Source of the DNA: Candidatus Poribacteria bacterium
GTDB lineage: Bacteria > Poribacteria > WGA-4E > PCPOR2b
Assembly (NCBI GenBank): GCA_965223985.1
Contig: OZ245030.1
Coordinates: 3,151,720-3,215,719, forward strand
Direction: 5' to 3'
Length of the DNA: 64,000 nt
Of the stretch, positions 11,418-62,849 are shown one piece after another. The translations under genes were made by a program, and so were the position numbers. Under the pieces are notes generated by a model. The model was not told the DNA's origin and did not search any database. It saw nothing but the letters and a program-made list of their open reading frames with translations. The stretch's first letter is position 1; each line of letters opens with the position of its first letter.

Positions 11418-11500
11418 TGTGAAATTCCTTTCGTGAATTGTGTCGTGTGGCTGAGAATCAAATCGTGAAGATTATTGCGAATTTCAATCTTCTGATTTTC

Positions 11501-12475
11501 TCATTTCCCTGATTGTCCCAGTTGCAGAATGGGAATGGGGCTGTTCGTTTCATCATCAATGATATAAATCTCTTTGACTTTCGGCAGAATCTCGCTCATC
11601 GTTTCGAGGTAGAGTCTGCGTCGGGTCACATTTTTAGCACTTTGATATTCCTGTCGAATCGAGTTGAATCGATCCGCGTCCCCTGTTGCCTCATTCACAC
11701 GTTTCAGGGCATAACCCTCTGCCTCGGAAATCTGTTGTCGTGCGAGCCCGTTGGCTCTGGGAACGGATTCGTTGTAATCACGCAAGGCTTCGTTAATCAA
11801 CCGCTCCTTCTCTTGCTTCGCCTCATTGACTTCATTAAAAGCGGGTTTCACGGTTTCCGGCGGATTCACATCTTGCAAGGTGACGTTTTCAATGTATAAA
11901 CCGGTTTTGTAAAGGTCCAACAACTCTTGTAGATTTTTTTTGACGCCCATTGCGATCTCTTGGCGTCCGACGGTAAGCACCTCTGTGACAGTGCGGTCAC
12001 CGACAACAATGCTCATAACAGCTTCAGAGAGATCGCGCAAGGCTTGTTTCGCGTCACGGATTTCAAACAGGAATTTTTGGGGTTCAGCAATTCGATATTG
12101 AACCACCCATTCGACATCGGCAATATTGAGATCACCCGTTAACAGAACAGATTCGTGCGAATAATCTCGGGAATCATATTGAGTTCGGACGCCTGCTCGA
12201 AGCGTACGAAACCCGAATTCCTCTTTGAAAACTTTCCGCACCCGGACACCGGTTGCTTTTTCAATTCCGAACGGCGCCTTGAAGTGCAGTCCCGGCGGGA
12301 CAGATCTGACGTACTCTCCAAACCGGAGCACGACACCTTCCTCATCGGCTTCAACGGTGTAGAAACTCGTTGCGGCTGCAACGACGGCGATCAAAATAAG
12401 AACGAGCCAAAAAACACGTTTAGCGGTGATGAGCCGCATATACGGCTGCAAATCATCCCACGATTGCTGTTGCAT
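11501..12475 (-). CDS. hflK: HflK (SPFH/band-7 protease modulator)
   Basis: TM segment then SPFH domain (VVLRFGEYVRSVPPGLHFKAPFGIEK...). Sits in the canonical hflK-hflC arrangement. Confidence 0.8.
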   Translation of the reverse strand: MQQQSWDDLQPYMRLITAKRVFWLVLILIAVVAAATSFYTVEADEEGVVLRFGEYVRSVPPGLHFKAPFGIEKATGVRVRKVFKEEFGFRTLRAGVRTQYDSRDYSHESVLLTGDLNIADVEWVVQYRIAEPQKFLFEIRDAKQALRDLSEAVMSIVVGDRTVTEVLTVGRQEIAMGVKKNLQELLDLYKTGLYIENVTLQDVNPPETVKPAFNEVNEAKQEKERLINEALRDYNESVPRANGLARQQISEAEGYALKRVNEATGDADRFNSIRQEYQSAKNVTRRRLYLETMSEILPKVKEIYIIDDETNSPIPILQLGQSGK

Positions 12476-27776: not shown

Positions 27777-27848
27777 CTCAACCCAACCTACGTTGCTGCC
27801 CACCGTTTTTGTGGATGATTTTTCCGGTCTTATGCTACAATTTTGTAT

Positions 27849-28199
27849 ATGGGTTTACAACAGATAAAAATATATCGTACGCCGGAAAATCGTGAGCCCT
27901 TTACGGATTGGTTAAAGTCAATACGAAATCAGGAAACACGAAAACGAATTCTAGTCCGACTTGATCGGCTTCGGCATAGTAATTTTGGCGATTGCAAATC
28001 CGTTGGAGATAATGTCTTTGAACTCCGTCTCCAATTTGGTTCTGGTTATCGTATCTACTTTGGAAGAATAGCAGAAAACATTGTACTGTTACTATGCGGT
28101 GGTGACAAATCCTCGCAGAATAAAGACATTGAAAGTGCAAAATCCTATTGGCAAGAATACAAGGAGGCGAACCATGAGACAATTTCGGGATTATCATGA
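27849..28199 (+). CDS. Type II toxin, RelE/ParE superfamily (HigB-like addiction-module killer protein)
   Basis: Matches the killer-protein family pattern ...FTDWL...RIL.RLDRL...GDCKSVGDNVFELRLQFGSGYRIYFGR..NIVLLLCGGDKSSQNKDIESAK. Overlaps the downstream antidote gene. Confidence 0.7.
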   Translation: MGLQQIKIYRTPENREPFTDWLKSIRNQETRKRILVRLDRLRHSNFGDCKSVGDNVFELRLQFGSGYRIYFGRIAENIVLLLCGGDKSSQNKDIESAKSYWQEYKEANHETISGLS

Positions 28200-28422
28200 T
28201 TACCTCATTGAAGAGGAATTGTCAAATCCGAAGGAGGCATTGCTTTATCTCGAAGTCGCGTTTGAAGAATACCTTAAGGATGGTGACGCCACAGCGTTTA
28301 TGTTAGCACTTCGCAACATTGATGAAGCACAAGGCACCAACCTAAGCAACACTTTGAAGCTATCCGCGAAAGAGCCCCGTAAAATTGCGAAGCTGTTTCA
28401 ACGTGCAGCTTCCCCGCTCTAG
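28174..28422 (+). CDS. Type II antitoxin (HigA-like addiction-module antidote protein)
   Basis: ATG at 28174 lies 6 nt after an AAGGAGG RBS and overlaps the toxin's 3' end. LSNPKEALLYLEVAFEEYLKDGDATAFMLALRNIDEAQG matches the antidote family consensus. Confidence 0.6.
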   Translation: MRQFRDYHDYLIEEELSNPKEALLYLEVAFEEYLKDGDATAFMLALRNIDEAQGTNLSNTLKLSAKEPRKIAKLFQRAASPL

Positions 28423-28430
28423 ATCTAGTT

Positions 28431-28505
28431 TTCGTAGGTTGGGTTTCGGAGAAAACTATCGCCCTCGTTATTCACTCGGTTGATCTCTACCCAACCTACA
28501 AGAGC
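28431..28505. repeat. REP-like element cluster (GTAGGTTGGGT / ACTATCGCC...GTTGATC family)
   Basis: ttcgtaggttgggtttcg...aaactatcgccctcgttattcactcggttgatctctacccaacctacaag; the same words recur more than 50 times in the window. Confidence 0.6.
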
Positions 28506-28510
28506 TACGT

Positions 28511-29023
28511 TCAGAGCCGCCCGAACGGGAATGTGCCGGGCATTACATCTAAGCCTCGGTAGTGATTCGGTTTAATCATCGACGGGAGTCTCAGGTCCGG
28601 CAATTTAATCTCGGTGAGCCGATGGTTCTGTTCGGGTGTGAGCGCCGCTTTAATTTCATTGAGGAGCACGCCAATCTCCTTGAGATAGCCGTTGCGTTGT
28701 GTAATGAACTCCCTAATCTTTGTTCTGAGCGTGTTTCGTGCGCGCGCCGACTGTCGAGACATTCTCCGATTACCTTCGTACGGGCTCAATTGGTCCATCC
28801 GTGCTTCGCTGCGATAGCCCTGGTAGTGCGACTCTAGCACATCCTTGTCAAATTCGTAGTCTTCGACGATGTCCCGAATGATGGAGATTTTGGAGGTAAT
28901 CGTCTCCTGCTGTTCCGGAGAGAGGTTCAACGCGGCTGTGGATGTCGGGATGTCGATTAACTTTACCCCGCCGCAGGCGGAGGTTAATGCGACGTAGAAG
29001 AGGATGATGATGATCCGTATCAT
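28511..29023 (-). CDS. Hypothetical secreted/lipoprotein (170 aa)
   Basis: Signal peptide with a possible lipobox (MIRIIIILFYVALTSACGG); basic, helical protein with no recognised domain. Confidence 0.5.
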   Translation of the reverse strand: MIRIIIILFYVALTSACGGVKLIDIPTSTAALNLSPEQQETITSKISIIRDIVEDYEFDKDVLESHYQGYRSEARMDQLSPYEGNRRMSRQSARARNTLRTKIREFITQRNGYLKEIGVLLNEIKAALTPEQNHRLTEIKLPDLRLPSMIKPNHYRGLDVMPGTFPFGRL

Positions 29024-29434
29024 ATTCTTTCCTTAGTTGTTGAAAGAGACCTACACAAAACGTCGCTTGACCGCCGCTGTTGTGCTGGTGTTCGGCATTT
29101 TTTTGATTGCCAATTTTTAATTATTCCTTGCGGTTCGATTAGGTGAATTGGTTAAATAACGTTATTTGCCGTAGACCCGACTGCGCCGTTGTTGCAGGCT
29201 ACACTTACGGATAAACCCGCACAATCTGAATGAAGTTTCAATAAATATTCCGGTAATTCTACGAAAGATACGGTTCATTCAAGAAATCCATAATCAGCGA
29301 AATCTGTGTAATCCATATAATCCGTGATTCAGACAATTTCGCAGAAACCCGCATTCTGCGCAAGCCTATAGAGGCTTGCGGGACAATGCGAAGCAAACGG
29401 ACGCAGCAGCCCAAGCTTACATAATTAAAAAACC

Positions 29435-30409
29435 TCAACCGAAGGAGACACCTAATTTGACGCTCCGTTCAGGATGATTGTCCATCTCTATATAGGCTTC
29501 GACTGAATCTTCAAACGGCACCACCGGATCAACGACACCTTCACAATCAAATCTACCTTCAACAAGCCACTTCCAGCAGGTATCAACGATACGTCCGAAA
29601 TGCCAGCGCGGATGATCGCGGTTCGGATCGCTGTTGGCACGGGCAAAGATGATGTTCGGGATGTTGACATGCGCGACAGCACCGAGGTCAAGCCCGCCCG
29701 TACACGCTTTTGCGCGTCCAGCGTAGACGATTGTTCCTTCAAAAGCGACACTGCGAATTGCATCATCAAGGGCTTCGTACACTGCACTTGTTTCTACAGC
29801 CACATCAACGCCAAGCCCGCCAGTCGCTTCTTTGAGCACCTCGCCGGTATTAGAGGCAGTGGGATCGATAACAAGCTCCGCCCCCGTTTTTTCAGCGACC
29901 TTCCGCCGTCTTTCGAGCGGGTCTACGGCAGCGACGAAGTCAGCCCCTGCGATCCGTGCCATTTGCACCGTCATCAACCCAATGGCACCAAGCCCAAAGA
30001 CAGCCACCCGCTCACCAACGCGTACCTTTCCATCGCGAATTGCGGACATTGCAAAGTGGGCTGGATCATAGCAGACCGCTTCCTTCCACGTCATACTCTC
30101 AGGCATCCTGAGGACACCAGCCGCACGCCATGTATGCGTCTCCTTGAGGTGCCCGTGACTGGCGACGCGTTCCCCAATCGCGAAACCCTCAACCTCTTCC
30201 CCGATTTCAATAACTTTTCCGACGCACATATTTCCAAGTCCCATCGGAAAAGTTTCGCCGTCATATCCGTAATACGCTGTCAGTTCTGTACCACGCTTGG
30301 GCGCGCCGAATTCGACTTGAACCCGGACACTATCCGCGGGGACGGGACCATCTGCGTACTCTCTCAAGACGGGCTGCCGAAGGGCAACCGCGACCAATTC
30401 TCTTGGCAT
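29435..30409 (-). CDS. Zinc-binding medium-chain dehydrogenase/reductase (alcohol dehydrogenase family)
   Basis: GroES-like N-domain with GLGNMCVGKVIEIGEEV and the Rossmann motif VAVFGLGAIGLMTVQMARIAGA. Confidence 0.8.
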   Translation of the reverse strand: MPRELVAVALRQPVLREYADGPVPADSVRVQVEFGAPKRGTELTAYYGYDGETFPMGLGNMCVGKVIEIGEEVEGFAIGERVASHGHLKETHTWRAAGVLRMPESMTWKEAVCYDPAHFAMSAIRDGKVRVGERVAVFGLGAIGLMTVQMARIAGADFVAAVDPLERRRKVAEKTGAELVIDPTASNTGEVLKEATGGLGVDVAVETSAVYEALDDAIRSVAFEGTIVYAGRAKACTGGLDLGAVAHVNIPNIIFARANSDPNRDHPRWHFGRIVDTCWKWLVEGRFDCEGVVDPVVPFEDSVEAYIEMDNHPERSVKLGVSFG

Positions 30410-30430
30410 CTTTTTCTCCTTAAAGTAGTA

Positions 30431-30512
30431 GGTATACTACAAAAGCTACAGAAGACTATCGCCTTCGCTATCCGCTCAGTTGATCGCTCAGTTGATCGGT
30501 CGCTTGATTCCT
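30431..30512. repeat. REP-like element cluster
   Basis: aagactatcgccttcgctatccgctcagttgatcgctcagttgatcggtcgcttgattcctcgctatc. Confidence 0.55.
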
Positions 30513-30514
30513 CG

Positions 30515-31318
30515 CTATCTTTTAGCTTTGAGGTTGCCCCACGTGGTGGTGAGTTTTCCGTGCGGTTGAACGGCGAGAAATCCTCTCAAACCGCCGTCGA
30601 AGTGGGCTTCAACCTCCTCTTCGCTCAAGGCGCGCTTAACGATGAGGACTTCGTCGATCATACCGTTGAAAAAGAAGGGACCTTCTGACCAGCCGATGTT
30701 TAGCGCGTGGTCAATCTCTTCAGGGATGTTTACCTTGTCATCAACATCTCCGAACGGCTTACCGTCCAGATAATAGGTGTATTTTCTGCCTTCCTTAACA
30801 AGAAGCATCTGATACCACTGCTTCAAATCCGGATCCCACGGGTCGGAGTCGATCCAAGCGACGCCTGCGCCGCCGGCGGTATTGATGTGGAAGTCGATCC
30901 CGTTGCCGGAGTACCACCAAATCCATTTGTTTGTGGGACCGCCGCCCTCATCGTGTCCGAGCAGGGTAAAGCCCGAAGAACCACGGTTCCCCTTCGGCGG
31001 ATCTTCTTCGAAGTAAAGCCATAGTCCGATGGTGAAGTCGGTTTTGTGCAGGCTGAGGCTGTCGTCTTTCTCAATTTCGACTTGGTTCGTTCCATCGAGC
31101 CGAACCGCTTGCCCGAATTTTCCCTTTTCTCGTTTCGCCTTCTGTTCCAGTATGCCGTCGTTACCGTGCGGGGACACGTCCTTGGCGACTAGCCCCTTTT
31201 CTTCGTCAAACGAGATGGCGAGTACGACATCCTTGTCCACTTCGAGCGCCGCCGTATCTCGAAGTGCGAACGCGAGCGTCAAAGCGAAGATTAATGCGAT
31301 GGAAATCGTGTATTTCAT
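30515..31318 (-). CDS. Secreted LamG/concanavalin-like domain protein (paralog 3 of 3)
   Basis: ATG at 31318 with an AGGAG RBS and signal peptide MKYTISIALIFALTLAFALRDTAA. Body has VVLAISFDEEKG...IDEVLIVKRALSEEEVEAH. C-terminal tail KLTTTWGNLKAKR is shared with the 7440 and 8237 paralogs. Confidence 0.7.
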   Translation of the reverse strand: MKYTISIALIFALTLAFALRDTAALEVDKDVVLAISFDEEKGLVAKDVSPHGNDGILEQKAKREKGKFGQAVRLDGTNQVEIEKDDSLSLHKTDFTIGLWLYFEEDPPKGNRGSSGFTLLGHDEGGGPTNKWIWWYSGNGIDFHINTAGGAGVAWIDSDPWDPDLKQWYQMLLVKEGRKYTYYLDGKPFGDVDDKVNIPEEIDHALNIGWSEGPFFFNGMIDEVLIVKRALSEEEVEAHFDGGLRGFLAVQPHGKLTTTWGNLKAKR

Positions 31319-31339
31319 TTTTGTTCTCCTTTTTGGGTT

Positions 31340-31460
31340 TTGAGTTTCAGCCACATTATTATATACGATCAACTGAGCGGATAGCGAAGGCGATAGGTCT
31401 TGTAGGTTGGGTTTCGCTGATGGATTAACCCAACCCACATTCCGCATTACCCATTATACC
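31340..31460. repeat. REP-like element cluster abutting a truncated gene
   Basis: gatcaactgagcggatagcgaaggcgataggtcttgtaggttgggtttcgctgatggattaacccaacccacat. Confidence 0.55.
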
Positions 31461-31931
31461 TCATATATGTTGTATAGGGATACCGATTTTTGCGACAGTT
31501 GCGCCGGTGGCGACCATTGGGTATCCGGGGAAGCATCGGTTCATTTTCATCTGATCGACGGGGCTACAGGCTTGTTTCGCGTGGAATGCGTGGAAGTTGA
31601 CAATCGGGACCGCGATGATTCGACCGTTTAGTGAATCCGGGGAAATTTGGCGCAGCAATTCGTGGACAACGGCGATACCGTTGAGTTCGTCGCCGTCGCT
31701 TATTGATTGTAGGTATAGCGTACGTTTTCCACAGGTTCCGTTGATTAGCACGACGGGCAAACGCACGGGCGTCCCGTCGGGCATGGATCCGACGGTAATG
31801 TAGTCCTCAACCCGTTTTCCGGGTTTTGCGACGAGTGATCCAACGGTGAGGCTGTTGTTATTTATCCACATTTTATCCACATTTATTTGTACGTTAGGGT
31901 TTGTGTCACGGTATGGTTGTATTTGTGGCAT
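31461..31931 (-). pseudogene. Truncated succinylglutamate desuccinylase/aspartoacylase (AstE/AspA) family gene (N-terminal ~155 aa only)
   Basis: Contains the family motifs (...VVLINGTCGKRTLYL..., ...NRCFPG...), but the ORF stops after about half the normal length, exactly where the REP cluster at 31340-31460 begins. Confidence 0.45.
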
Positions 31932-32094
31932 TTTAAACGTCCGGGAAACGGACCGGTGAATGCCAACGCTAAGGACGATTGGAACAAGAAAAGCCGAATG
32001 CGCTATTCGGAAATTGGAGCGGAGTATTGTGTTTGGTTATGTGTTTGGTTGCCGGAGGTTTCAAAAGCGTTGGGTTTCGCTATCTCCAGCGAGT

Positions 32095-32300
32095 GTCGCA
32101 CGCAGTAAACCTACAAAGCGATTCGTTATAATGCACATGTTTCGGCATACCCGCTCTACCCAACCTACAAAGACTACAAAGACTACAAAGACTATCGCAG
32201 TCGCTATTCGCTCCTTTGATCCCTACCCAACCTACAAAGACTATCGCACTCACTATTCGTTCGCTTGATCGCTCAGTTGATCTACCCAACCTACGAAAGC
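32095..32300. repeat. REP-like cluster with a tacaaagac microsatellite
   Basis: ctacccaacctacaaagactacaaagactacaaagactatcgcagtcgctattcgctcctttgatccctacccaacctacaaagactatcgcactcactattcgttcgcttgatcgctcagttgatctacccaacctacg. Confidence 0.6.
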
Positions 32301-32974
32301 TACGAAATACGGGCGACCACGACCGCGACGGGTCCTTGTTGCCAGACGCATTCGGCGTCGAACCCTGCGGCGCGGGCGGCTTCGAGTTCCTCCTCAAGCG
32401 GGAAATACGTGTCTTCCTCCGCCCATTGCGTGAAATATTCCCGTGCACGCGGTTCATCAATTCCACGCGCGACCATATGATCAATCCAGTTTCGCCACGT
32501 TGCCTCGCGTTCAGGGGGCGCCGCTGGCATCGTTGCGTCCGCATTGACGAAGGCGCCGCCAGATCGGAGCGCGTCGTAAATCCGCCGGTAGAGTGCGCGT
32601 TTCGCATCCATTGTCGGTACATGGTGAAGCGCTAATGACGCCGCGACAGCTTTGCACGGCGGCAGCGGCATGTTGAACGACGATTCGGTGAAGCGAACCC
32701 GTCCGTCAAACCGCTCGAGCCGCGTTCGTGCTTGTACTAGCATCTCGGGGTCGATGTCGATGAGTTCCACAGTTCCAGAACCGTCCGCCGAGAGAATCGC
32801 CTCGGAGAGCGCGCCGGTACCCCCGCCGAGGTCGAGGGTCAAGCCCGGCGTTGTGCGGGCAATTTCGCGCGCAGCGACAGCTAGCATCGTCTCGTAGCCC
32901 GGAATGAAGCGGCGAATCGTTTCGTCGTAAGTGCGGATTTCAATGCCGAGGTGACGGTGTACGGAGTGGTTCAT
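32300..32974 (-). CDS. Class I SAM-dependent methyltransferase
   Basis: Motif I LDLGGGTGALSEAIL and downstream acidic motifs. The ATG at 32974 (MNHSVHRHLG...) was chosen because the ORF track's longer ORF reads through from the upstream RAYT remnant. Confidence 0.65.
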   Translation of the reverse strand: MNHSVHRHLGIEIRTYDETIRRFIPGYETMLAVAAREIARTTPGLTLDLGGGTGALSEAILSADGSGTVELIDIDPEMLVQARTRLERFDGRVRFTESSFNMPLPPCKAVAASLALHHVPTMDAKRALYRRIYDALRSGGAFVNADATMPAAPPEREATWRNWIDHMVARGIDEPRAREYFTQWAEEDTYFPLEEELEAARAAGFDAECVWQQGPVAVVVARIS

Positions 32975-33300
32975 GATTATTCGTTGCCGATTTCGGTGGA
33001 AGCTGGAGTGTTCCCAGAATCTGCGTTGCCAGAATGCGCGCTCCTGTTTGGTTTTGCGTGATGTTGCAGCGGCACGTTCAAATGTGGTTTGGCAATTACG
33101 GGTGAAGTAGCTTTTGATTTGCCGCCATCGGGTTGAGAAGTCGTGGTCGTCGTCGGGCAGTAGGACGAAGGCATCGACCTCCATTTTGGACGGCGTTCCA
33201 TCGTGGAGCGGAGTGCTTGGCGTAGGAGTTTCACGTTTTCCGGTTGGCAGAGAAAAGGTTTGCGGTCATGGGTCACGACGGTGAAGAAGTAGGTTGCGCC
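32975..33300 (-). pseudogene. Decayed REP-associated tyrosine transposase (RAYT) copy
   Basis: Near-identical at DNA level to the intact RAYT at 34857-35399, but with a frameshift after ...LRQALRSTMER and a 30-bp deletion that removes the HLHTIWTLPD (HxH) motif. Its reading frame runs directly into the methyltransferase ORF. Confidence 0.7.
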
Positions 33301-33334
33301 ATTGATTTTTGGCGCGGCGGTAGTGCATGGAGGT

Positions 33335-33400
33335 CGCACCATATATATACTGTATGTTTTTCGTTTGTTAGGTTGGGTTAAGATCAACCCAACCTACAAA
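33335..33400. repeat. REP-like elements
   Basis: ttaggttgggttaagatcaacccaacctacaaaacttc. Confidence 0.5.
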
Positions 33401-33404
33401 ACTT

Positions 33405-33686
33405 CTATCTCCGTTTGTTCGATCTCGTGATGGTTACAACGACTGCCGTATCCTTCCGGCGTTCGGCTTCCTGACAACTGATGAACCTACCTGTTTTTGC
33501 ATCGCGCCCGACCTTAATGGTAGTTTCACCATGTTTCCGCCCCGCCTCGCCACCACCGTGCTTGCGAAAAACGACCTTTTCTACAGCCTGTTGAACTTGT
33601 CTTTTTGTGAGCTTCCCACGTTTGGGCGGGTACTTAACGATTCTTTCTCTAGCCACTCTAATCACCTCCCTAGGACCGTGTTTCAA
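33405..33686 (-). CDS. Hypothetical small basic protein (93 aa), second gene of a REP-flanked two-gene cassette
   Basis: Starts 1 nt after the stop of the 208-aa ORF on the same strand. Lys/Arg/Gly-rich (KHGGGEAGRKHGETTIKVGRDAKTGRFIS); no confident family assignment. Confidence 0.5.
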   Translation of the reverse strand: MKHGPREVIRVARERIVKYPPKRGKLTKRQVQQAVEKVVFRKHGGGEAGRKHGETTIKVGRDAKTGRFISCQEAERRKDTAVVVTITRSNKRR

Positions 33687-34313
33687 TCAGCGGCTCGCAT
33701 AAGTCGTCAACCATTCCGCTAGCAAGCAAGTATAATCAAATAAAATCAGCTCTTCAACCGTTAATTGATTCACCTCAGCCAGCTGAGGCAAATCCCTCCT
33801 AAATTCTTGGTAACGTTCCCAAATGATGCTTCCACTTGGAATTTTCTTACGTCTTGATGCGGTGCTCAGCCAATTTCGTACAACTGTTACAACTTCTTCG
33901 GGATTGTTGTTATGAGCCTGAATATCTTGCCCTGCAATATCCGAAATAAATTGTTGATACCGATACCGTTCTTTATCCAGTATGAGACAATTTTTCCTTT
34001 TTTGTTCCTTCAGACCAAATTTCTTTGCGCCAATAAAAACCCCCAATTCCAAAGGCATATTGAATCGAGGAAAACGTGAAGTCTCGTCTAATTCCGTTCG
34101 CGATATATCGTGAATCCCATAACGACAAGCTGCAACAATGTTATAGATTTTATCAATCCGAACTTGGCTGGCGTCTTCTTCTTCGAGGGCACAACGGGCA
34201 ATAAATCCGCAATCGTGTACAGCAAAAACCATTGCATCAAACAAAGGTTTATAGGGCACATCAATGGGACAATTTAGAAAAACATTGTGATTATAGCTTT
34301 TGGGTGAACTCAT
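33687..34313 (-). CDS. Hypothetical protein (208 aa) with a Rossmann-like (possibly TIR/SLOG-like) N-terminal region, first gene of the REP-flanked cassette
   Basis: N-terminal pattern NVFLNCPIDVPYKPLFDAMVFAVHDCGFIARCALEEE...GIHDISRTELDE...MPLELGVFIGA resembles alpha/beta nucleotide-processing folds; the assignment is weak. Confidence 0.55.
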   Translation of the reverse strand: MSSPKSYNHNVFLNCPIDVPYKPLFDAMVFAVHDCGFIARCALEEEDASQVRIDKIYNIVAACRYGIHDISRTELDETSRFPRFNMPLELGVFIGAKKFGLKEQKRKNCLILDKERYRYQQFISDIAGQDIQAHNNNPEEVVTVVRNWLSTASRRKKIPSGSIIWERYQEFRRDLPQLAEVNQLTVEELILFDYTCLLAEWLTTYASR

Positions 34314-34339
34314 GATTTGCTATGTCTGTGTGTTTAAAC

Positions 34340-34800
34340 CCATCTTGCTCCCCCCTTTTTTAAGGCGGGACTGAGGGGGTAGTAGCGTGTGTCGCGATTC
34401 GGAGCAAGTTTTTGTAGGTTGGGTAGAGTCAACGGCGAAACCCAACGTTTTTGAAACGTCCGTTCAGCCGACCGGTTAACGGCAACACGAGAACGATGGG
34501 AACGACAAAAAGGAACAAAAGGCAATGACACTATACGGGATTTGTATGATTGTGTGGAAACGCGACGCGTTTTGGTGTTCGGGAGGTTTCAAAAACGTTG
34601 GGTTTCGCTCTGTCGAACAATTCTCGCACACAATTAACGAACAGACCGATTCGTTATAATGCACATGTTTCGGCATACCCACTCTACACCAACCTACAAG
34701 AACTACAAAGACTATCGCCTTCGCTATTCGCTCCTTTGATCCTAACCCAACCTACAAGAACTGTTTGTTTGATGCCTTCAGCGCAATACGATAAGCATTA
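34340..34800. repeat. Hairpin repeat plus MITE-like and REP-like elements
   Basis: gggactgagggggt hairpin relative; then cgaaacccaacgtttttgaaacgtccg...ccgggaggtttcaaaaacgttgggtttcgct inverted termini and ctacaccaacctacaagaactacaaagactatcgccttcgctattcgctcctttgatc. Confidence 0.6.
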
Positions 34801-34856
34801 TGCGCGGAATATTATGCCATATTTTAAGGACATATACCAACGAAAACCACAAAGAG

Positions 34857-35399
34857 TTATTCTTTGCCGATGTCGGGGTTGATGGGGATTCCTGCGCCTG
34901 TGCTCCAGTTCGCGTCGTATACGCCGGCTTGGACGTAGCGGTGGAAGCTGGAGTGTTCCCAATCCTTTGGGGCGGTAACTAAGCCGTGCTTGACGGGATT
35001 ATAGTGGATGTATTCAACGTGGTTGATATAGTCTTGAGTGTCTTTGACCGTGTGTTCCCAGAATCTGCGTTGCCAGAATGCGCGCTCGTTTTTGGTTTTG
35101 CGCGATGTTGAAGTAGCACGTTCAAATGTGGTTTGGCAGTGACGGGTGAAGTAGCTTTTGATTTGCCGCCATCGGGTTGAGAAGTCGTGGTCGTCGTCGG
35201 GCAGCGTCCAGATGGTGTGGAGGTGGTCGGGTAGCAGGACGAAGGCATCAATCTCGATCGGATGGCGTTCCATCGTGGAGCGGAGCGCTTGGCGTAGGAG
35301 TTTTACGTTTTCCGGTTGGCAGAGAAAAGGTTTGCGGTCATGGGTCACGACCGTGAAGAAGTAGGTTGCGCCATTGATTTTTGCACGGCGGTAGTTCAT
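34857..35399 (-). mobile_element. Intact REP-associated tyrosine transposase (RAYT; IS200/TnpA_REP-like), 180 aa
   Basis: MNYRRAKINGATYFFTVVTHDRKPFL..., the HxH motif LLPDHLHTIW and catalytic Tyr region YINHVEYIHYNPVKHGL. The gene is surrounded by REP sequences. Confidence 0.85.
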
Positions 35400-38260
35400 G
35401 GAGGTCGCACCATTGTATTATTATGTATATTAAGATGTGGGTTTTGTGGTATTCGGAGCATTATGCCATATTATTGGGACATATATCAACGAAAACCAAG
35501 AACAACGGAAGCCAACGATCAGCTGAGCGATCAAGCGAACGAATAGGGAGCGATCAAGGGAGCGAATAGCGACCGCGATAGTCTTCTCCGTTCAGCCGAC
35601 CGGTGAATATCGACACGAGAACGATCGGAACGCGAAAAAGGAACGGGGTTGTTCGGAGTTTGGGGCGGTGTATTGCGTTTGGTATTCATTTGGTGTTCCG
35701 GAGGTTTTAAAAACGTTGGGTTTCGCTCTGTCGAACAATTCTCGCACACAATTAACGAACAGACCGATTCGTTATAATGCACATGTTTCGGCATACCCGC
35801 TTTACACCAACCTACAAAGACTACAAGAACTACCCAACCTACAGAAGCTCTACCCAACCTACGGGTTGCACGGAGGATTTGTTTTTGTAGGTTGGGTAGA
35901 GCGGGTATGGCGAAACACACGCAGTTTATTGCGAGCGATTTATGTGTTGAGGTTGTTTGGTAAATGTTAAGGTGTAGCGAAACCCAACGTTTTTGAGACG
36001 TCCGGACATCAGACCGGTTAACGGCAATACCAAAGCAATCGGAACAAGAAAAAGCAAAGGGGTTGTTCGGAGTTTGGGACGGTGTATTGTGTTTGGTATT
36101 CATTTGGTGTTCCGGAGGTTTTAAAAACGTTGGGTTTCGCTCTGTCGACCAATTCTCGCACACAATTAACGAACAGACCGATTCGTTATAATGCACATGT
36201 TTCGGCATACCCACTCTACACCAACCTACAAAGACTACAAGAACTACCCAACCTACAGAAGCTCTACCCAACCTACGGGTTGCACGGAGGATTTGTTTTT
36301 GTAGGTTGGGTAGAGCGGGTATGGCGAAACACACGCAGTTTATTGCGAGCGATTTATGTGTTGAGGTTGTTTGTGGTAAATGTTAAGGTGTAGCGAAACC
36401 CAACGTTTTTGAGACGTCCGGACATCAGACCGGTTAACGGCAATACCAGAGCGATTGAAACAAGAAAAAGCAAGGGGTTGTTCGGAGTTTGGGACGGTGT
36501 ATTGTGTTTGGTATTCATTTGGTGTTCCGGAGGTTTTAAAAACGTTGGGTTTCGCTCTGTCGAACAATTCTCGCACACAATTAACGAACAGACCGATTCG
36601 TTATAATGCACATGTTTCGGCATACCCGCTCTACCCAACCTACAAAGACTAAGGGGTTGTTCGGAGTTTGGGGCGGTGTATTGCGTTTGGTAATTATTTG
36701 GGTTGCCGGAGGTTTCAAAAACGTTGGGTTTCGCTCTGTCGAACAATTCTCGCACACAATTAACGAACAGACCGATTCGTTATAATGCACATGTTTCGGC
36801 ATACCCACTCTACACCAACCTACAAAGACTACAAGAACTACCCAACCTACAGAAGCTCTACCCAACCTACGGGTTGCACGGAGGATTTGTTTTTGTAGGT
36901 TGGGTAGAGCGGGTATGGCGAAACACACGCAGTTTATTGCGAGCGATTTATGTGTTGAGGTTGTTTGGTAAATGTTAAGGTGTAGCGAAACCCAACGTTT
37001 TTGAGACGTCCGGACATCAGACCGGTTGACGGCAACACCAGAGCGATTGAAACAAGAAAAAGCGTAAGGCGTGGTTCGGAGTTTGGGGCGGTGTATTGTG
37101 TTTGGTAATTATTTGGGTTGCCGGAGGTTTCAAAAACGTTGGGTTTCGCTCTGTCGAACAATTCTCGCACACAATTAACGAACAGACCGATTCGTTATAA
37201 TGCACATGTTTCGGCATACCCACTCTACACCAACCTACAAAGACTACAAGAACTACCCAACCTACGGGTTGCACGGAGGATTTGTTTTTGTAGGTTGGGT
37301 AGAGCGGGTATGGCGAAACACACGCAGTTTATTGCGAGCGATTTATGTGTTGAGGTTGTTTGGTAAATGTTAAGGTGTAGCGAAACCCAACGTTTTTGAG
37401 ACGTCCGGACTCAGACCGGTTGACGGCAACACCAGAGCGATTGAAACAAGAAAAAGCGTAAGGCGTGGTTCGGAGTTTGGGGCGGTGTATTGTGTTTGGT
37501 AATTATTTGGGTTGCCGGAGGTTTCAAAAACGTTGGGTTTCGCTCTGTCGAACAATTCTCGCACACAATTAACGAACAGACCGATTCGTTATAATGCACA
37601 TGTTTCGGCATACCCGCTTTACCCAACCTACAAAGACTATCGCCCTCCCTATTCGGTCGGTTGATCTACCCAACCTACAAAGACTATACGGGATTTGTAT
37701 GATTGCGTGGAAACGCGACGCGTTTTGGTGTTCCGGAGGTTTCAAAAACGTTGGGTTTCGCTCTGTCGAACAATTCTCGCACACAATTAACGAACAGACC
37801 GATTCGTTATAATGCAGATGTTTCGGCATACCCGCTCTACACCAACCTACGGGTTGCACGGAGGATTTGTTTTTGTAGGTTGGGTAGAGCGGGTATGGCG
37901 AAACACACGCAGTTTATTGCGAGCGATTTATGTGTTGAGGTTGTTTGGTAAATGTTAAGGTGTAGCGAAACCCAACGTTTTTGAGACGTCCGGACATCAG
38001 ACCGGTTAACGGCAACACCAGAGCGATTGAAACAAGAAAAAGCTAAGGCGTGGTTCGGAGTTTGGGGCGGTGTATTGTGTTTGGTAATTATTTGGGTTGC
38101 CGGAGGTTTCAAAAACGTTGGGTTTCGCTCTGTCGAACAATTCTCACACACAATTAACGAACAGACCGATTCGTTATAATGCACATGTTTCGGCATACCC
38201 GCTCTACACCAACCTACAAGAACTCAACCCAACCTACAAAGGCAACGAAAATTACAGTTT
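35400..38260. repeat. Higher-order tandem array (at least 5 copies, ~420-580 bp period) of a composite unit: a MITE-like element with ~30-bp inverted termini plus a REP hairpin pair
   Basis: Unit termini are AGCGAAACCCAACGTTTTTGAgACgTCCGGA ... TCCGGAGGTTTtAAAAACGTTGGGTTTCGCT. A perfect REP palindrome ctctacccaacctac-N23-gtaggttgggtagag and a 33-nt REP (TGTTTCGGCATACCCGCTCTACCCAACCTACAA) occur in both orientations. The unit repeats at roughly 35640, 36065, 36470, 36660, 37075, 37490, 37700 and 38040. All ORFs here are repeat translations. Confidence 0.75.
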
Positions 38261-38860: not shown

Positions 38861-38989
38861 TGTTATGATTTAGGAAAGGAACAACTACCAATTATGGATA
38901 GTTCAACTAAGGCTTGCGAATCTGGCAAGCGAAACAAAATCAAATTCAATCCTTCAACATACAAACATGCAAGGAGGAAACATACAGTC

Positions 38990-41900
38990 ATGTTGAGTAG
39001 AATTTCGAAAATGAGTGTTTTCGGTATCGTTGCGCTCATGCTCGTTCTCGGGCTGGCGTCGGACGATGCGCAGGGACGGGATCCGGCAGCTGGAACATAC
39101 GTGGTAACAATGCAAACAGAACCATCTGTGCTGCGCGCAGCAGACACAGCTACGGTGACGTTTACCCTCACTGTCGACCTTCGGGAAAACAAGTCTACTC
39201 AAGACCCAATCCCGGAGGATCAGGCTAACGCTGATACGGCGGAGCGTACGGTCACCATTAACATTCCGGGAGGGTCGACAGGGTGGTCGCCCAACCCGGT
39301 TGCGTTATCCGGAGAGACTGCGGTGGACCCGGGCGAGGTGAGTTTCGCTAAAACTACTGTTATCACCGACAACACTCTCGCGTGGATTTCCGGGTCTAAC
39401 GCACGGAAGCTGAATATCAAAATTGTCGCAGGAATTGACGGTAATGGTGTATATACCATCGTATACGCAGCGGCGACTGTGCCTAACCGCAAAGGCGATA
39501 GCTACAGATTTTTAATTGACAACGCAGACACCAAAGACATTCCGTATAGCGTTGATTACGCGACGAGCGGATCGGGAACGGTCACGATGAGTCCGTACAG
39601 CCCGTTGGACGCGATTGTTGGCGGCGATGCTGATGATAAAAACGCTTGGAACGGCAAATATGTTTTCAATAGCAAGACGGCGTTAAGACCGTTGAAGTTT
39701 ACTTACAAAGCGGCGGGTTCTATGCCAAAGGATTCAACCGTTTCAATAGTTATGACGGGTGGATTCAGCCTTCATGGAAAGAGCAGTTCCGTAATTTCCG
39801 TGAGCGGTTCCGGTTCTCCAGAACTTTCTACTCCCGTAGATACCGTTGTAGTAGATGAAAGTACTACGGTAGTCGCTACAGTGAAGGCAGAGGGCGGGCT
39901 GGGAGCCGGCCAGTCGATAGCCATAACCATTAGGGAGCTTGTGATGCCGGAGGTCGTAGCGGCAGCCGATGCCCCGGATACGGATAATACCATTACAGTG
40001 ACTTCTACGTCGGGTACTACGAACTTTCAAGACGATGCCCGCCCGGTTGCTATTGACAATGCTGCTGGAGATGTCGACAAAGGTTTATTCGAGTTCTACA
40101 CGACTGCAGCGCCCGGGACCGGTGAAATGACGATTAATTCTGGCGGCGACCCGATTCAAAACATGCGCGTCGTGGAAGGCACTGACCTCGGGACATTGGT
40201 ATTTGGAATTACGGGCACGGACGGTATGGGACCGGACGCCAAATTTCAGATTAAGGTTCCGGGCGCCCCTTGGCCCGAGCCTATTAAGGCGTCCGGCACG
40301 ATTGGCGTTGTTGCCGATTCGGAAGCCGCCGGACACACGGCGAATGCGGAGATTGGCACTGGCGGTGCGGCTCGCACACTCAGCGGAAGCCTTACAACTA
40401 ATACACTTCAATCTGGTACAAATAATCCCGAGGCTAATGCAAATTTGAACGATACTGATAACGGCGGGATTACGTACCGAGCCGGCGCGATATCGGTACA
40501 CGGCAAGCATGAGTTCATGCTTTTGACCAGTTCCGGTCCGCACGGCGCCACATTGAAAGAGAGGACCGGCGGGGACGGGGCTGACGCGTACCCCCGGTAC
40601 ATTGAAGTCACCGCGAAGCACGAAAGCGGTACGTTCGTCGTTAGAGAGGGCGGATCGCCGTTAGTGCAGTCAAAACCCGCGAACGAGCACACGCTCCAGT
40701 TAGTCTTTAAAGCCACTGGCTACATGCCGGCAGGGATGGTTGTGTTTAGGTTCCCGGATAGATGGAAAAGTCCTCGCCGTGACGTCGCTCCGCCGTTTGA
40801 AGTGGGAGAGGTGAGGTTTAGCAATAACGCGACGTTTATTGTCAACACCGACGGGACCATCACTGCGACGGGGGACTGGCGAGATGAGGAAATTGTAGTT
40901 ACCTACAGAGGCATGGTTCCGGGCGAGGCGGGTACCCCGCCCGAGTCACACACTTTTACCGTGGATGCATCATCGTTCGGAGGTGATGCTAGCTTCCCGG
41001 CCCCGGCGGCCCGACCGGCTGCTTATTCCCATACGATTGGTCCCAATCTCGCGGCGGATGGCAGCGGCACACTCGCGATTGAGCCGAAGAATGCGAATGC
41101 CGGCGAGACGATTAATTTGAATATAACTTACACAGCCGCGGGCACGATGGAAGATGGATCAGTTGTTGAGGTTACCATCCCCGAAGGCTGGCCTGATCTT
41201 GATGCGCCTGGCACATCAGTCGAGATCGGCGCAGAGGGCATCGTGGCAACCTTGAATGAGTCGAAGAGGACGCTGACCGCTACAACTGTTGATGATATGG
41301 TCACTGATTCCAAACTCGTGTTCAACGTCACGGGCGTTACAGCGCCGGCTGTCGGCAGAGGTTACCAGTTCACCGCGCAATCAAAATCGCACGGAGAACT
41401 AAAGAGCCTTTCGTCAAGGCAAATCTCCGGTGCAGTCATCAATATCAGCAACGTGGCTGCTGGTTCCGCCCTGCTTACGCTAGTGAGGGAAGACGGAACG
41501 ATGGCGGAATCTGCCGAACCCCTGGATTCGTTTGAAACGGCCAAAATCACTTTTACGGTTGGCTTGGCGATGCAACCCGGGGCGGAGGTTAGGGTCACGG
41601 TTCCGGATGGCTGGACGAATGAACCTTTCCAGGACAACGGCATGCCGCGTACGAGCGGTGAGGTTACGCTTGAAGGGAAGGCGGATCTTAGCGTCGAGGG
41701 AAGCGTGCTGATCGCCAAGGCGAACGCTCAGATTAACCCTGGCGAAACAGTGACGTTCACCTACCATAAGCCGACCGCGCCTGAAGGCGAAACAACATCG
41801 TCTTTCGATACACAGGCGTCAATTGTTGAAGGCGGGGGTTTACTGGCGGTTGCAAATCAGCAAACAACTGTGGTCGTTAGAAGCAAGGTCACCGCGTTGA

Positions 41901-44900
41901 CGCTTACCGCCGAATCGGCGACGAGCGTGTTCGTAGGCGATCCGGTCAAACTCACCGTTAGCTCGGATGCGCGTGCTCCGGTTCGCGGTCTTGCGGTAAC
42001 GTTAGCGACCGATCCGGCTGATACAGGGATGTTCTCCCTGACCGAAGACGGGACAGCCACCACTTCGGTGACGATTGAGGATTCGGCTACTACGATGTCC
42101 ACCACGTTTTATTACATAGGCCCAAGTTCCATTGATACGGCATCTGTCGATGTCGAGTTGACGGCGACGGCTATGGTGGATGGCGAAGCCGTTGCATCTG
42201 ATCCCGTGGAAGTTAATGTCAGGTCCACGATTAGCATGCTGCAGGTTAACGGCATGCATGATGATCCGGAACCGGTGGAGGTTGGTGCCGCAATTACGGT
42301 GACAGCGATCGGTAAAGACGGCAGAGCCACCGTAACGGTAACTGACGCTGAAGAAGAGGCGGTCGAGTCACTAACAAATCTTGGACTTGATGTCGACTCC
42401 GATGCTACTGACGTACCGGCAGGTAGTGTTGCTTACAAGCGTAAAATTGAACTGCCGGACGATCTTGCCGAAGGCGATTACACCGTAACCGTGACTATTG
42501 ACGGCGTTTGGTTGCCAATAGAGATCAGTGTGGTGGCAGCCAGAGCACAGGTTACCGAATTGACGCTCACCGCGTCAGCGGATAATTTCTTCGCGGGCGA
42601 GTCAATCACAGTCACTGTTGCATCGGATGCTCGTGCACCCGTTGACGGTCTTGAGGTGACATTGTCGACAGATCCCGCAGATTCGGGAACGTTCTCCGAT
42701 CCCGAAAGCGAGGAGACCCTCAAGGGAGGGATGGTGACGATTGAGGATGCTGCGGATTCAATGTCTGCAGATGTTAATTACACCAACTCTGCGAGGGGGA
42801 CTTTCATGCTGACGGCGACAGCTATGGTTGATGGCGAGGCCGTTACATCTGACCCGTTGGAAGTTACGGTCAACCCCACGATTACCGTTCAGGTTAACGG
42901 CATGGACGCACCGGAAGCGGTGTTGCCCGGCGCCACAATTAGTGTGACGGCGAGCGGTAAAGCAGGCGGAGGCACCGTAATGGTAACCGACGCTGAAGGC
43001 GAAGCAGTCGAGTCATTAACAGGGCTTGGACTTAATGTCGACGCCGATGCTGCTGACGTTCCCGAAGGCAGCGTTGCCTACATGCGCGACATTGAACTGC
43101 CCGCGGATATTGCTGACGGCACTTACACAGTTACCGTGACAATTGGCAGCGAGTCGGTGCCAGTGATGTTGGAGGTCATGACACCCACAGAACCGGTCAC
43201 CGCTATCGCGATTGTACCGGATCCGACCAGCGTGTTTATCGGCGAGGACATTGCCGTCTCCGTGACGCTGTGGAGCGGTGCCGAAGAAGGGGCTGCCTCG
43301 GCAGCTATGGTCATCAACCTGACGGATGGCGAAGCCGGCGGTAGTTTCACCGATACCGAAGGCAATGCTATCACTTCGGTCACTATAGCCGTTGGAGGTT
43401 TCGACGCGTCTGCGAAATATAGCAATGCCAGCAGAGGCGAAATCACGCTGACCGCGACGGCAGCCGATGAGGCGTTGGAACTTGAGCCGGCAACCGCCGA
43501 TGTCACGGTCAAGCCCTCGATTTACAATTTTGAGGTTAACGGCACGGACGAGCTAGGCCCGCTGACGGCTGGCGTCACAATTACTGTGTCGGCGACCGGA
43601 AAAGAAGGTAAAGCCACCGTAACGGTAACTGACGCGGACGGCGAAGGGGTTGTGCCATCGAAAGGGCTTACAGGACTTGATGAAGAGCCCGATGAAGAGG
43701 GCAACGTTGATTACACGCGTAAATTTGACCTACCGGTCGTTCTTGCCGATGGCATTTACACAGTTACGGTTACCATTGCCGGCGAGACTGCCGCAATGGC
43801 AATCGAAATCATAAACGACCAATCAAAACCGGCGTTGAGCAACCAGAAGGTATTGCCCGACACGGTAGCGAGCGGCAGTGTGATTACGCTTAGAATCGAC
43901 GTGAGTTCTAATGTGCCTAATCCCGAGTTGTCAGTGATGGCGGATGTCAGCGAGATTGATGCCGACCAAGCCGCTGTTCAGTTGACGAAACTGCCCGGGA
44001 CGGAGAGCACCTATGCCAACATCTACGTGGTCAAAAACAGCGACCCGCAAGACGATGGCGAGAAGACCATCACGTTCATGGCGACTGATAGGATTGGCGG
44101 CGCAAGCGAAATGACTGTGTCCACGTCCTTGAAGAACGACGTTACGCCTCCGGTGCTGAGCGATCCGACCGCTATGCCTTCACCAGTGGTGAACGGTATG
44201 GACGTTACCATTTCGGTTAGCAGTGAATCCGGTCTCACGGTCACGGCAGATGCTTCCGAAATCGGCGGCGGCATGGTGACGCTGACCGAGGGTACGGTTG
44301 ACGACGGTATGGATGCCAACGGCAACGGTAATGGTATGGATGCCAACGGCAACGGTAATGGCATGGATGCCAACGGCAACGGTAATGGTATGGATGCCAA
44401 CGGCAACGGTAATGGCATGGATGCCAACGGTAACGGTAATGGCATGGATGAAGATATGGTCGGCACGGGCATGTATAGCAGCGACCCGATCACAGTCGCC
44501 GTTACTGAAGGTGGCGATCAGACCATCACCGTCAAGGCGACCGATGCCTCTGGTAACGAGGCTACCATAGACGTAACCGTCACGGTTGAGGTGCACGAGG
44601 TGACAAGCGTTACTTTCGTTCGCACGGGCGATACGGTTACGGTAACCACGATGGGCACCGCTGGATTGAAAGCGGAGTTCAGCGTCTTCAATGAAGCTAT
44701 GAAGATTATCGGTGAGAAGGCGATGACGGAATCGGATGATGGCGGAAGCTATACAGGCAGTTTCATCATTGTTGTAGACGCCCATCCCGCTGGTGAGTAT
44801 TGGATTTCTAGCAGCGTGGGTACTGCTGCCAGTATGACCGCAGAAGGTGCACTCACGATCGACCACGGGGCGCATTTCACCCTGTCAATCGGCGCGGGTA

Positions 44901-60900: not shown

Positions 60901-60912
60901 GGGGCATTTTTT

Positions 60913-62847: not shown

Positions 62848-62849
62848 CC

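Follow-up and report, generated by a model that had tools for sequence, protein, structure and literature searches.

We report a locus in a 64,000-nucleotide (nt) stretch of the chromosome of a Candidatus Poribacteria bacterium (GenBank assembly GCA_965223985.1, contig OZ245030.1, positions 3,151,720 to 3,215,719; the whole stretch is called the window, and coordinates are window positions). It is very probably the resident locus, or REPtron, of a tyrosine transposase (RAYT) of the kind associated with repetitive extragenic palindromes (REPs), together with non-autonomous repeats recognised by this enzyme family. Among transposases that bacteria have retained over millions of years together with non-autonomous repeats, RAYTs with their inverted REP doublets (REPINs) have been studied most thoroughly; to our knowledge, such systems have been characterised almost only in Proteobacteria, with REPs of 20-40 nt. 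A search of the available literature returned no paper linking Poribacteria with REPs, RAYTs or miniature inverted-repeat transposable elements (MITEs). The locus extends the RAYT/REP system to Poribacteria, which are uncultured sponge symbionts, and has one recognition foot in common with RAYT clades of several phyla. What is new is a hairpin apex carrying an insert of about 70 nt, conserved in length and not in sequence.

The enzyme is encoded on the minus strand by an intact open reading frame (ORF) of 180 amino acids (aa) at 34857-35399, and by every sequence criterion its product is a RAYT. It scored 201.6 bits against the NCBIfam model NF047646 (REP_Tyr_transpos; cutoff, 80), covering profile positions 1-146 of 146, and 27.1 bits against the NCBIfam IS200 model (below the cutoff of 55); Pfam Y1_Tnp matched at an E value of 1.9e-8. 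Escherichia coli TnpAREP (PDB 4ER8) matched at an E value of 3.9e-40, with both the HUH motif and the tyrosine aligned. The HUH motif is H59-L60-H61, within LPDHLHTIW (LPEHMHCIW in 4ER8), and the Tyr region VEYIHYNPVKHG aligned to VDYIYINPVKHG, placing Y130 at the first tyrosine of DYIYINP (residue 115, counted along the alignment). A first-pass annotation of this DNA had already named an intact 180-aa RAYT here, and the ORF, NF047646 and 4ER8 bear it out: the protein falls within RAYT/TnpA_REP, as a match to the NCBIfam RAYT equivalog and a homologue of TnpAREP. The exact protein sequence had no database record, and P0001 (96% identical) served as a substitute. More than 7,965 homologues were found at E≤1e-20, most of exactly 180 aa, in Poribacteria, cyanobacteria, Anaerolineae and Desulfobacterales.

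Enzyme and repeats form a cognate association that extends across phyla. Dispersal was scanned with an 18-mer core, GTAGGTTGGGTAGAGCGG, against one genome per species (596 Gb), which gave at least 116 loci where about 17 were expected by chance; among the matches listed, 67 loci lay in 29 Candidatus Poribacteria assemblies. Along the complete chromosome OZ242326.1, the core occurred at 0.6, 1.6, 1.9, 2.2, 2.9, 3.0, 4.0, 4.2, 4.25, 4.5 and 4.7 Mb, and the repeat words are hence dispersed over Poribacteria chromosomes rather than confined to the window. The first-pass annotation proposed to look for inverted pairs near RAYT genes; the loci compared here contained inverted doublets, and boxes flank the RAYTs at loci L051, L060, L120, L123 and L124. 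The cyanobacteria Scytonema and Brasilonema carry the exact 18-mer core and close RAYT homologues, and RAYT homologues lie within REP-seeded loci of Desulfatiglandaceae (L060, 56% identity) and Pseudoalteromonas (L051, 46%). Boxes of the 11-mer GTAGGTTGGGT stand in alternating orientation on both sides of the RAYT in L060, L051 and the Poribacteria loci L120 and L124. The window RAYT is flanked by REPs at 34414-34446 and 34597-34697 on one side and by 35715-35815 and a long array on the other, and two 101-nt units enclose the more distant RAYT of the Poribacteria locus L123 (72% identical), one of them 29 nt ahead of the start and the other 11 nt beyond the stop.

REP units all start with GTAG followed by the stem strand GTTGGGT, and the conserved foot comprises the 5' GTAG, GTTGGGT/ACCCAAC as a stem of 7 bp, the purines AGA/GAA as a 3x3 internal loop and GC/GC as a stem of 2 bp. 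At L123, GTCGGGT...ACCCGAC replaces GTTGGGT...ACCCAAC in the foot of both units, a compensatory change, and nine units from 8 assemblies have the upper stem AC..GT instead of GC..GC, a second compensatory pair. Judged from these paired substitutions, the foot stem of the REP hairpin is maintained by selection. A metagenome scan with the variant core GTAGGTCGGGTTGAACGG gave 52 matches (L126-L177), almost all in coding sequence of high-GC soil bacteria, where GTAGGTCGGGTTGAACGG is apparently a conserved coding word; REP-core scans in GC-rich metagenomes therefore yield false positives.

The REP of Poribacteria is a giant, length-constrained version of this element, with insert length conserved and insert sequence free. 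The compact REP of cyanobacteria, Desulfobacterota, Pseudoalteromonas and Pseudomonas, GTAGGTTGGGTAGAGCGG followed by AGCGAAACCCAAC, is 31-33 nt long; in the long REP of Poribacteria, its 18-nt 5' half and 13-nt 3' half lie about 70 nt apart. Units of Chloroflexota measured 60-62 nt (loci L005, L102 and L115) and those of Oleiphilus and Oceanospirillum 66-68 nt (L003, L014, L023, L103 and L114), with inserts of again tightly fixed size and varying sequence in both groups; Poribacteria units measured 100-104 nt (101 of 101), and eight units of an unlabelled metagenome-assembled genome 99-104 nt. None of the measured units had a length between these classes. The length of the long insert stays within 69-73 nt over 37-50 sequence subfamilies, whose mutual identity is below 60%, and the insert has no conserved motif apart from a weak A-rich patch. 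Nor was a conserved fold found in it: RNAalifold, run on 98 distinct units, kept the foot stem only.

Single units fold modestly as DNA (mean z, -1.2). Two units joined tail to tail form doublets, six of them in the window (332-344 nt) and eight more in relatives (234-386 nt). The doublet at 35887-36229 folds as one long hairpin, with -80.5 kcal/mol and z=-11.1 as DNA and z=-10.5 and -10.6 as RNA on the two strands. According to a test in which one insert was shuffled, doublet pairing comes from the conserved boxes; the arm inserts contribute in two of seven doublets (the alpha-beta type of the window, z=-3.8, and, weakly, L044), the other five having z close to 0. The arms belong to different insert families, and their inserts are mostly not complementary. 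The spacer between the arms ranges from 30 to 181 nt, so indels are tolerated beside the inserts but not within them. In many other Poribacteria species (loci L004, L017, L021, L073, L076, L105, L116 and others), a long doublet lies inside a larger element with the inverted ends TAACGTGAGTTCGATAATAAAA ... TCGAACTCACGTTA, and these larger elements are inserted in unrelated gene contexts.

A possible account of the length rule, which we put forward tentatively, is that the foot is a portable recognition module common to at least five phyla and fitted with lineage-specific apical inserts of measured length. The insert of about 70 nt in Poribacteria would then be a spacer selected for length and free in sequence, its size being required either by RAYT-mediated mobilisation or by some role of the 100-bp duplex in the host, for instance phased bending or wrapping by a nucleoid protein; these giant REPs would then be a new structural class of RAYT-dependent elements and not ordinary REPs that had drifted. 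If the length rule reflects mechanism, insert-length variants would offer a simple way to ask what a monomeric RAYT measures when moving DNA.

A different weighting, which we hold to be rather unlikely as the whole account, would make the repeats mainly host-functional DNA or RNA elements under selection (curved DNA, nucleoid-protein sites, or stabilisers or terminators of transcript ends), with the insert as a functional spacer and the RAYT as a mere domesticated maintainer, or now irrelevant. The constancy of insert length over all subfamilies, beside an inter-arm spacer that varies from 30 to 181 nt, speaks for this, as does a period of 10-10.5 nt in the AA/TT dinucleotides of the inserts (z of about 6 relative to shuffled sequences and of about 4 relative to random 71-mers of the same loci; 0 of 300 reached the observed value). 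E. coli bacterial interspersed mosaic elements (BIMEs) are known binding sites of integration host factor and gyrase (PMC2817692, PMC3479197), and RAYT systems are seen as vertically inherited and domesticated (PMC5581495). Yet the periodicity was computed on insert sequences that are related to one another and not independent, which makes it a lead only; the insert has neither motif nor fold in common, and units lie in both orientations relative to genes. A host role is moreover partly compatible with the REPtron explanation, as RAYT-mediated spread can coexist with it.

Within the window, the repeats lie in two zones. Exact copies of the 11-mer GTAGGTTGGGT number 39, where chance would give about 0.03 in 2 x 64 kb, and all are confined to 27781-38237 and 59159-63604; neither the 11-mer nor any other repeat module was found in 1-27776 or 38301-59064. 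All REP copies in the window are intergenic, and all intergenic spaces of 27.8-38.3 kb carry a repeat module except 29024-29434. The module map agrees, apart from that exception, with the repeat-filled intergenic spaces first described at 28.4-38.3 and 59-63.6 kb. The 'REP-like palindromes' of that description are REPs as supposed, with a GTAG tag and in BIME-like mosaics, and they are mostly 100-104-nt units, usually paired tail to tail, rather than 30-nt hairpins. Twenty long REPs (100-104 nt), 3 compact REPs and one 62-nt REP were mapped, the insert types of the long units being beta (12), alpha (5), gamma (2) and delta (2), with units within doublets counted. The window and strain L118 share, at 29008-29358, about 260 nt of non-repeat intergenic DNA that strain L117 lacks, a further strain-level indel near the island.

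The largest repeat structure is a gene-free composite array of 2.8 kb (35500-38260), made of five alpha-beta doublets, four solo beta units and repeated junction blocks; ORFs inside it contained no Pfam domain above cutoff. Its doublets are tail to tail and REPIN-like, all mapped on the plus strand, at 35887-36229 (343 nt), 36301-36643 (343 nt), 36895-37238 (344 nt), 37290-37631 (342 nt) and 37875-38217 (343 nt); the first consists of alpha at 35887-35988 (+), a 140-nt spacer and beta at 36129-36229 (-). Solo beta long REPs lie on the minus strand upstream of the intact RAYT (35715-35815), at 36723-36823 and 37750-37850, downstream of the intact RAYT (34597-34697; each of these 101 nt) and between the AstE and methyltransferase genes (32069-32168; 100 nt). 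The compact REPs are GTAGGTTGGGTAGAGTCAACGGCGAAACCCAAC at 34414-34446 (+, 33 nt), one at 31402-31434 (+, 33 nt), and one of 26 nt at 33372-33397 (-), between a decayed RAYT and a small ORF.

A linker module, ACTATCGC...GATC, has 14 sites in the window. It forms the loop (GATCAAC...GGCGATAGT) of the 62-nt REP at 28438-28499 (-), accompanies a 12-nt tandem of CGCTCAGTTGAT in the space that separates the ADH gene from Laminin_G (30455-30509, +), and occurs as a pair, a 23-nt tandem, at the RAYT-proximal edge of the array (35529-35582, +). A mosaic at 32165-32290 (+) joins a 9-nt CTACAAAGA tandem of 3.3 copies, two linker modules and three CTAC-ended half sites (Tandem Repeats Finder [TRF]; repeat families D4, D7 and D8).

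TRF resolved the array into repeats with periods of 414, 179 and 394 nt, whose copies are 95-98% identical even across the junctions (families D1-D6). Such en-bloc copying, junctions and all, points to tandem duplication and not to independent insertions; the array at 35.5-38.3 kb bears the signature, in its sequence, of growth by tandem duplication of whole 394-414-nt blocks, through unequal recombination or slippage. The first-pass annotation had called the local proliferation 'RAYT-driven', which the en-bloc tandem copies do not show. Between the surface-protein gene and the RAYT, the array measures 3.6 kb in L118 and 2.7 kb in the window. At the corresponding site of OZ242326.1, to which coding regions of the window are 82-85% identical, 1.6 kb with a 140-aa ORF and a single 386-nt doublet separates the methyltransferase from the surface protein.

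The gene neighbourhood of the RAYT recurs in related species. Between 31.3 and 38.3 kb, the gene order, all on the minus strand, is Laminin_G_3, AstE/AspA, methyltransferase, decayed RAYT, two small ORFs and intact RAYT, followed by the array and the gene of a 2,402-aa surface protein. Locus L120, from a related species (RAYT 82% identical), has the order surface protein ... 209-aa/83-aa pair ... RAYT, methyltransferase, AstE (326 aa), Laminin_G and ADH; the RAYT is therefore resident here, which argues for vertical inheritance. At L124 (RAYT 86% identical), it lies between the methyltransferase and AstE. The RAYT gene of this sponge-symbiont chromosome is a domesticated one.

The locus is unstable, and strains differ in how many copies they retain. 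Coding regions of the window that flank the locus are 97-99% identical to two metagenome contigs of the European Nucleotide Archive (ENA; L117 and L118, strains of the same species) that carry the 96%-identical RAYT. In each strain, two intact RAYTs, which agree at 168 of the 181 positions aligned, flank a 208-aa/83-aa gene pair, and the second RAYT is followed by roughly 1 kb of REP modules that the window lacks. L117 holds in addition a third RAYT remnant (11440-11570 of that contig), the C-terminal 130 nt or so, whose stop lies 3 nt before the methyltransferase ATG; the locus therefore once held at least three RAYT copies. Duplication of the RAYT unit has also left a trace in a pair of 45-nt boxes (family D14), one upstream of the intact RAYT (35454-35498, -) and an 87% copy directly after its stop (34805-34849, -), with a start-to-start distance of 649 nt. 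The upstream box holds the best promoter-like match of the region (TTGATA-18-CATAAT, TG-extended, 10 of 12 consensus positions) and the second box TTGGTA-18-CATAAT; the promoter scan is consensus matching only, and the regional number of matches was not above shuffled expectation.

In the window, the second copy is a pseudogene at approximately 32977-33328 (-), recognised by DNA alignment, by tblastn pieces in two frames and by comparison with the intact RAYT-B and the third remnant of L117. Aligned at the DNA level, 33008-33342 and 35052-35413 are 92-97% identical (families D9, D11 and D15). The first-pass annotation had described a decayed copy with a frameshift and a 30-bp deletion removing the HxH motif. 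The alignment confirms this damage, as a +1 indel, a +2 indel and a 30-nt deletion that takes LPDHLHTIW with the HUH motif, and adds further losses: a segment of about 90 nt encoding the Tyr motif and 65 nt close to the 3' end. Compared with L117, the deletion runs from ...TTCTGGGAACAC to ...TGGGAACAC of the remnant and took the Tyr motif, the kilobase of REPs and the start of the third remnant. The old stop of the decayed copy, TAA, stands 3 nt ahead of the methyltransferase ATG.

That methyltransferase (SAM-dependent, 224 aa; 32300-32975, -; Pfam Methyltransf_25/12/11) has orthologs of 224-225 aa beginning MNHSVHRH, which puts its true start at the ATG at 32975. The 294-aa ORF listed at 32300-33184 is read-through from the RAYT remnant into the methyltransferase, and it exists because the 65-nt deletion shifts the frame. 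It is thus the artefact that the first-pass annotation had taken it for.

Between the RAYT copies lies a two-gene cassette on the minus strand, with a 208-aa ORF first (33687-34313) and an ORF of 83-93 aa second (33405-33686). For the 208-aa and 93-aa ORFs, neither Pfam, with the limit relaxed to E≤10, nor NCBIfam, PADLOC or a profile search of the PDB gave a match, and an AlphaFold2 model had a mean predicted local distance difference test (pLDDT) score of 50.5, too poor for a fold search. The pair could be toxin-antitoxin-like, or mobile. Several copies of the 208-aa-type gene can occupy one contig.

An improbable reading would take RAYT-cassette-RAYT as a composite mobile unit in which the directly repeated RAYTs move the pair as cargo. 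The flanking of the pair by two intact RAYTs, 93% identical, in L117 and L118 invites it, and more than 7,505 homologues of the 208-aa ORF (the best 120 all 73-83% identical and nearly all from Poribacteria-type metagenomes) suggest a multicopy or mobile pair, which recurs near a RAYT in L120. That order is known, however, from this one syntenic locus only, and the pair occurred in 0 of the 116 REP-seeded loci among the matches listed; in L120 it stands 2.3 kb from a single RAYT, and in L124 it adjoins an IS3 element away from the RAYT. HUH enzymes of the Y1 type work on hairpin ends rather than on flanking gene copies, and the 45-nt direct repeats at 649-nt spacing fit simple tandem duplication.

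The neighbouring AstE/AspA-family gene (31464-31871, -) has lost its middle. BLASTP against the 326-aa ortholog of L120 aligned residues 1-127 at 87% identity together with residues 305-326, and tblastn and blastn comparison resolved the joint: residues 1-116 of the ortholog continue in frame with 305-326, the two parts meeting at a shared Pro-Gly, so that about 188 codons (approximately 117-304) are gone. The gene keeps its native start and stop, L117 and L118 carry the same allele, and two related species have the gene at its full length of 326 aa. The first-pass annotation had the gene ending exactly at a REP cluster and suspected insertion or deletion by the repeats. A REP does lie close by (31402-31434), 27 nt past the stop; since the native stop is kept, the repeat did not truncate the gene, and comparison with the full-length homologs identifies an internal in-frame deletion instead. 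The REP simply fills a normal intergenic space.

That the 100-nt units or 340-nt doublets, approximately, are structured non-coding RNA genes rather than DNA-level mobile elements is very improbable. Doublets do fold strongly as RNA, with z about -10.5, beta units contain a TATAAT box, and many GTAG REPs have been suggested to be transcribed, according to Di Nocera et al. (PMC3733652). But RNA of either strand and DNA fold equally well, as is expected of a palindrome; RNAalifold retains nothing beyond the foot stem over the 98 units, and no promoter-like site within the array passed the scan. Rfam at E≤1 on 31.3-38.4 kb gave miRNA-precursor hairpin models only, on both strands and below half of the gathering score, a sign of palindromy and not of family membership. 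At the gathering threshold, Rfam and a tRNA scan of the window and 12 related loci returned no Rfam family and no tRNA gene.

Least credible of all are MITEs with 11-nt terminal inverted repeats moved by a DDE transposase, the RAYT being a bystander: the termini GTAGGTTGGGT...ACCCAACCTAC do resemble such repeats and insertion sequences with DDE or rve transposases lie nearby in L120 and L124, yet the same core flanks RAYT homologues in three phyla, the GTAG tag with a mismatched hairpin foot is the recognition signature of TnpAREP (PMC3479197), the foot covaries with the RAYT variant in L123, and we saw no DDE transposase in or beside either repeat zone of the window, no DDE transposase with the same terminal repeats and no target-site duplication at units.

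Further candidates were dropped. A CRISPR array, suggested by variable inserts of constant length between boxes, does not fit boxes that differ and are partly inverted, units on both strands and insert families that are themselves repeated (beta 12 times, alpha 5 times); no cas genes were seen in the window. An IS200/IS605 element was rejected on the score below the IS200 cutoff, the lack of tnpB in the window and the synteny of the gene across species. A hammerhead ribozyme, considered for the CTGATGA words in some alpha-type inserts, had no GAAA core in register and no Rfam match. A quantum of 35.5 nt behind the lengths of 31, 67 and 102 nt and the 35-nt array described below was set aside as numerology: the 60-62 nt of Chloroflexota are a misfit, and the inserts have no internal duplication.

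The preferred explanation is the resident RAYT with its cognate repeats. By homology to E. coli TnpAREP, the enzyme would be an HUH/Tyr single-strand DNA nuclease-ligase that binds the foot of the REP hairpin in single-stranded DNA and cuts and rejoins nearby; in this way, single REPs or their inverted doublets (REPINs) would come to be spread over intergenic DNA. The order of events in building the island is likewise reconstructed. A RAYT unit may have been duplicated, leaving copies that flank the two-gene cassette and, in related strains, a third remnant before the methyltransferase; REP doublets next to the RAYT would then have been amplified en bloc by tandem duplication into the 2.8-kb array. 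In the strain of the window, deletions between short direct repeats probably ruined one RAYT and fused its remnant to the methyltransferase ORF, and a separate deletion would have taken the middle of the AstE/AspA gene.

Several points weigh against this explanation. RAYTs typically occur in one copy per genome per REP family (PMC5581495), and the present species carries two or three adjacent copies (one intact and one pseudogene in the window; two intact and a remnant in L117/L118). REPs are 20-40-nt palindromes by definition (PMC3733652, PMC3479197), and most units here are 2.5-3 times longer; long units alone fold modestly at best, and only their foot is conserved. The dispersal figure is a lower bound (at least 116 loci) for all genomes together. 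The number of variants behind the compensatory changes is small, since a single exact 18-mer served to seed the loci. Finally, RAYT activity and the movement of 100-nt REPs are predicted from homology to E. coli TnpAREP.

The second repeat zone of the window (59091-60860) contains the long REPs gamma (59526-59626, +) and delta (60172-60274, -), a gamma-delta doublet (60318-60649) and linker modules at 59091, 59438, 59814, 59941 and 60766. Beyond it, a 35-nt tandem array followed by a linker module and two CTAC-ended half sites occupies 62962-63604 (+); TRF gave 16.3 copies with 93% matches for 62962-63531. The 35-nt unit consists of the 5' part of the linker module and ...CTACAAAG (the ending also given as ...AACTACAAAG), and each unit has a CTAC end (GTAG on the other strand) without a REP stem. 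This array sits between paralogous genes of DUF6785/DUF6784 membrane proteins (60913-62847 and 63630 onward), of which a third paralog lies at 22049-23995.

At the other edge of the island, 27843-28422 (+) holds an ORF of a Gp49/HigB-like toxin (Pfam PF05973, E 3.9e-6) and, next to it, a small ORF that overlaps it. The two probably form a toxin-antitoxin pair, with REP half sites on either side (27781 and 28434-28499). Two giant surface-protein genes on the plus strand occupy 38894-46102 (2,402 aa) and 46470-55571 (3,033 aa). The 2,402-aa protein has a FlgD_ig/secretion-tail-like C terminus and a 27-nt tandem repeat (44309-44450) encoding MDANGNGNG five times.

REP arrays of this kind break short-read assemblies of sponge symbionts, generate spurious ORFs (the fusion ORF, and 'genes' of 80-270 aa within arrays) and mark hot spots of strain-level rearrangement.

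Four known systems invite comparison. With IS200/IS605 elements (IS608 TnpA), the locus shares the HUH/Y1 fold family (Pfam Y1_Tnp) and recognition of a hairpin in single-stranded DNA with a guide tetranucleotide; unlike them, it lacks TnpB, its gene is not enclosed by defined left and right ends, and this gene is apparently not multiplied over the genome. Among GTAG REPs, the class GTAG-15 is described in the text of Di Nocera 2013 (PMC3733652) as having 'large loops (9-15 bp)... complementary bases are missing'; loops of up to 27 bp are reported in that work. The compact form (GTAG, GTTGGGT, a 13-nt loop with GC termini and no internal complementarity, ACCCAAC) fits GTAG-15 by that text description only; Poribacteria lie outside the phyla listed in the same text, and an insert of about 70 nt with constrained length is not among the forms it describes.

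The REPIN-RAYT systems of Pseudomonas fluorescens SBW25 and other Gammaproteobacteria (PMC3116915, PMC5581495) are alike in that inverted REP doublets are the replicating unit, the RAYT neighbourhood is conserved by vertical inheritance and REPIN clusters lie beside the RAYT; here, too, inverted REP pairs with a spacer fold as one hairpin (z=-11). SBW25-type REPINs measure about 100 nt overall, whereas a single arm has about that length in the window; the arms here come from different insert families with mostly non-complementary inserts, and the RAYT is not single-copy.

The closest counterpart is TnpAREP with the REPs and BIMEs of E. coli (Nunvar 2010, PMC2817692; Messing 2012, PMC3479197, 4ER8). 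The enzymes are homologous, with HUH motif and tyrosine conserved; a 5' GTAG marks the foot of the hairpin, which is imperfect and has an essential region of mismatch (PMC3479197), and REPs flank the gene in alternating orientation. BIMEs are mosaics of REPs and conserved linker motifs, and in the window long REPs of plus and minus orientation likewise alternate with a recurrent linker, which joins successive REPs in relatives (for example, in the 219-nt-period arrays of L079 and L080). In E. coli, however, a REP measures 35-40 nt, and the units of the window are mostly 100-104 nt with a non-complementary apical insert of about 70 nt; its doublets reach about 340 nt, related strains hold two adjacent intact RAYTs, and the host is a member of the Poribacteria, not a proteobacterium.

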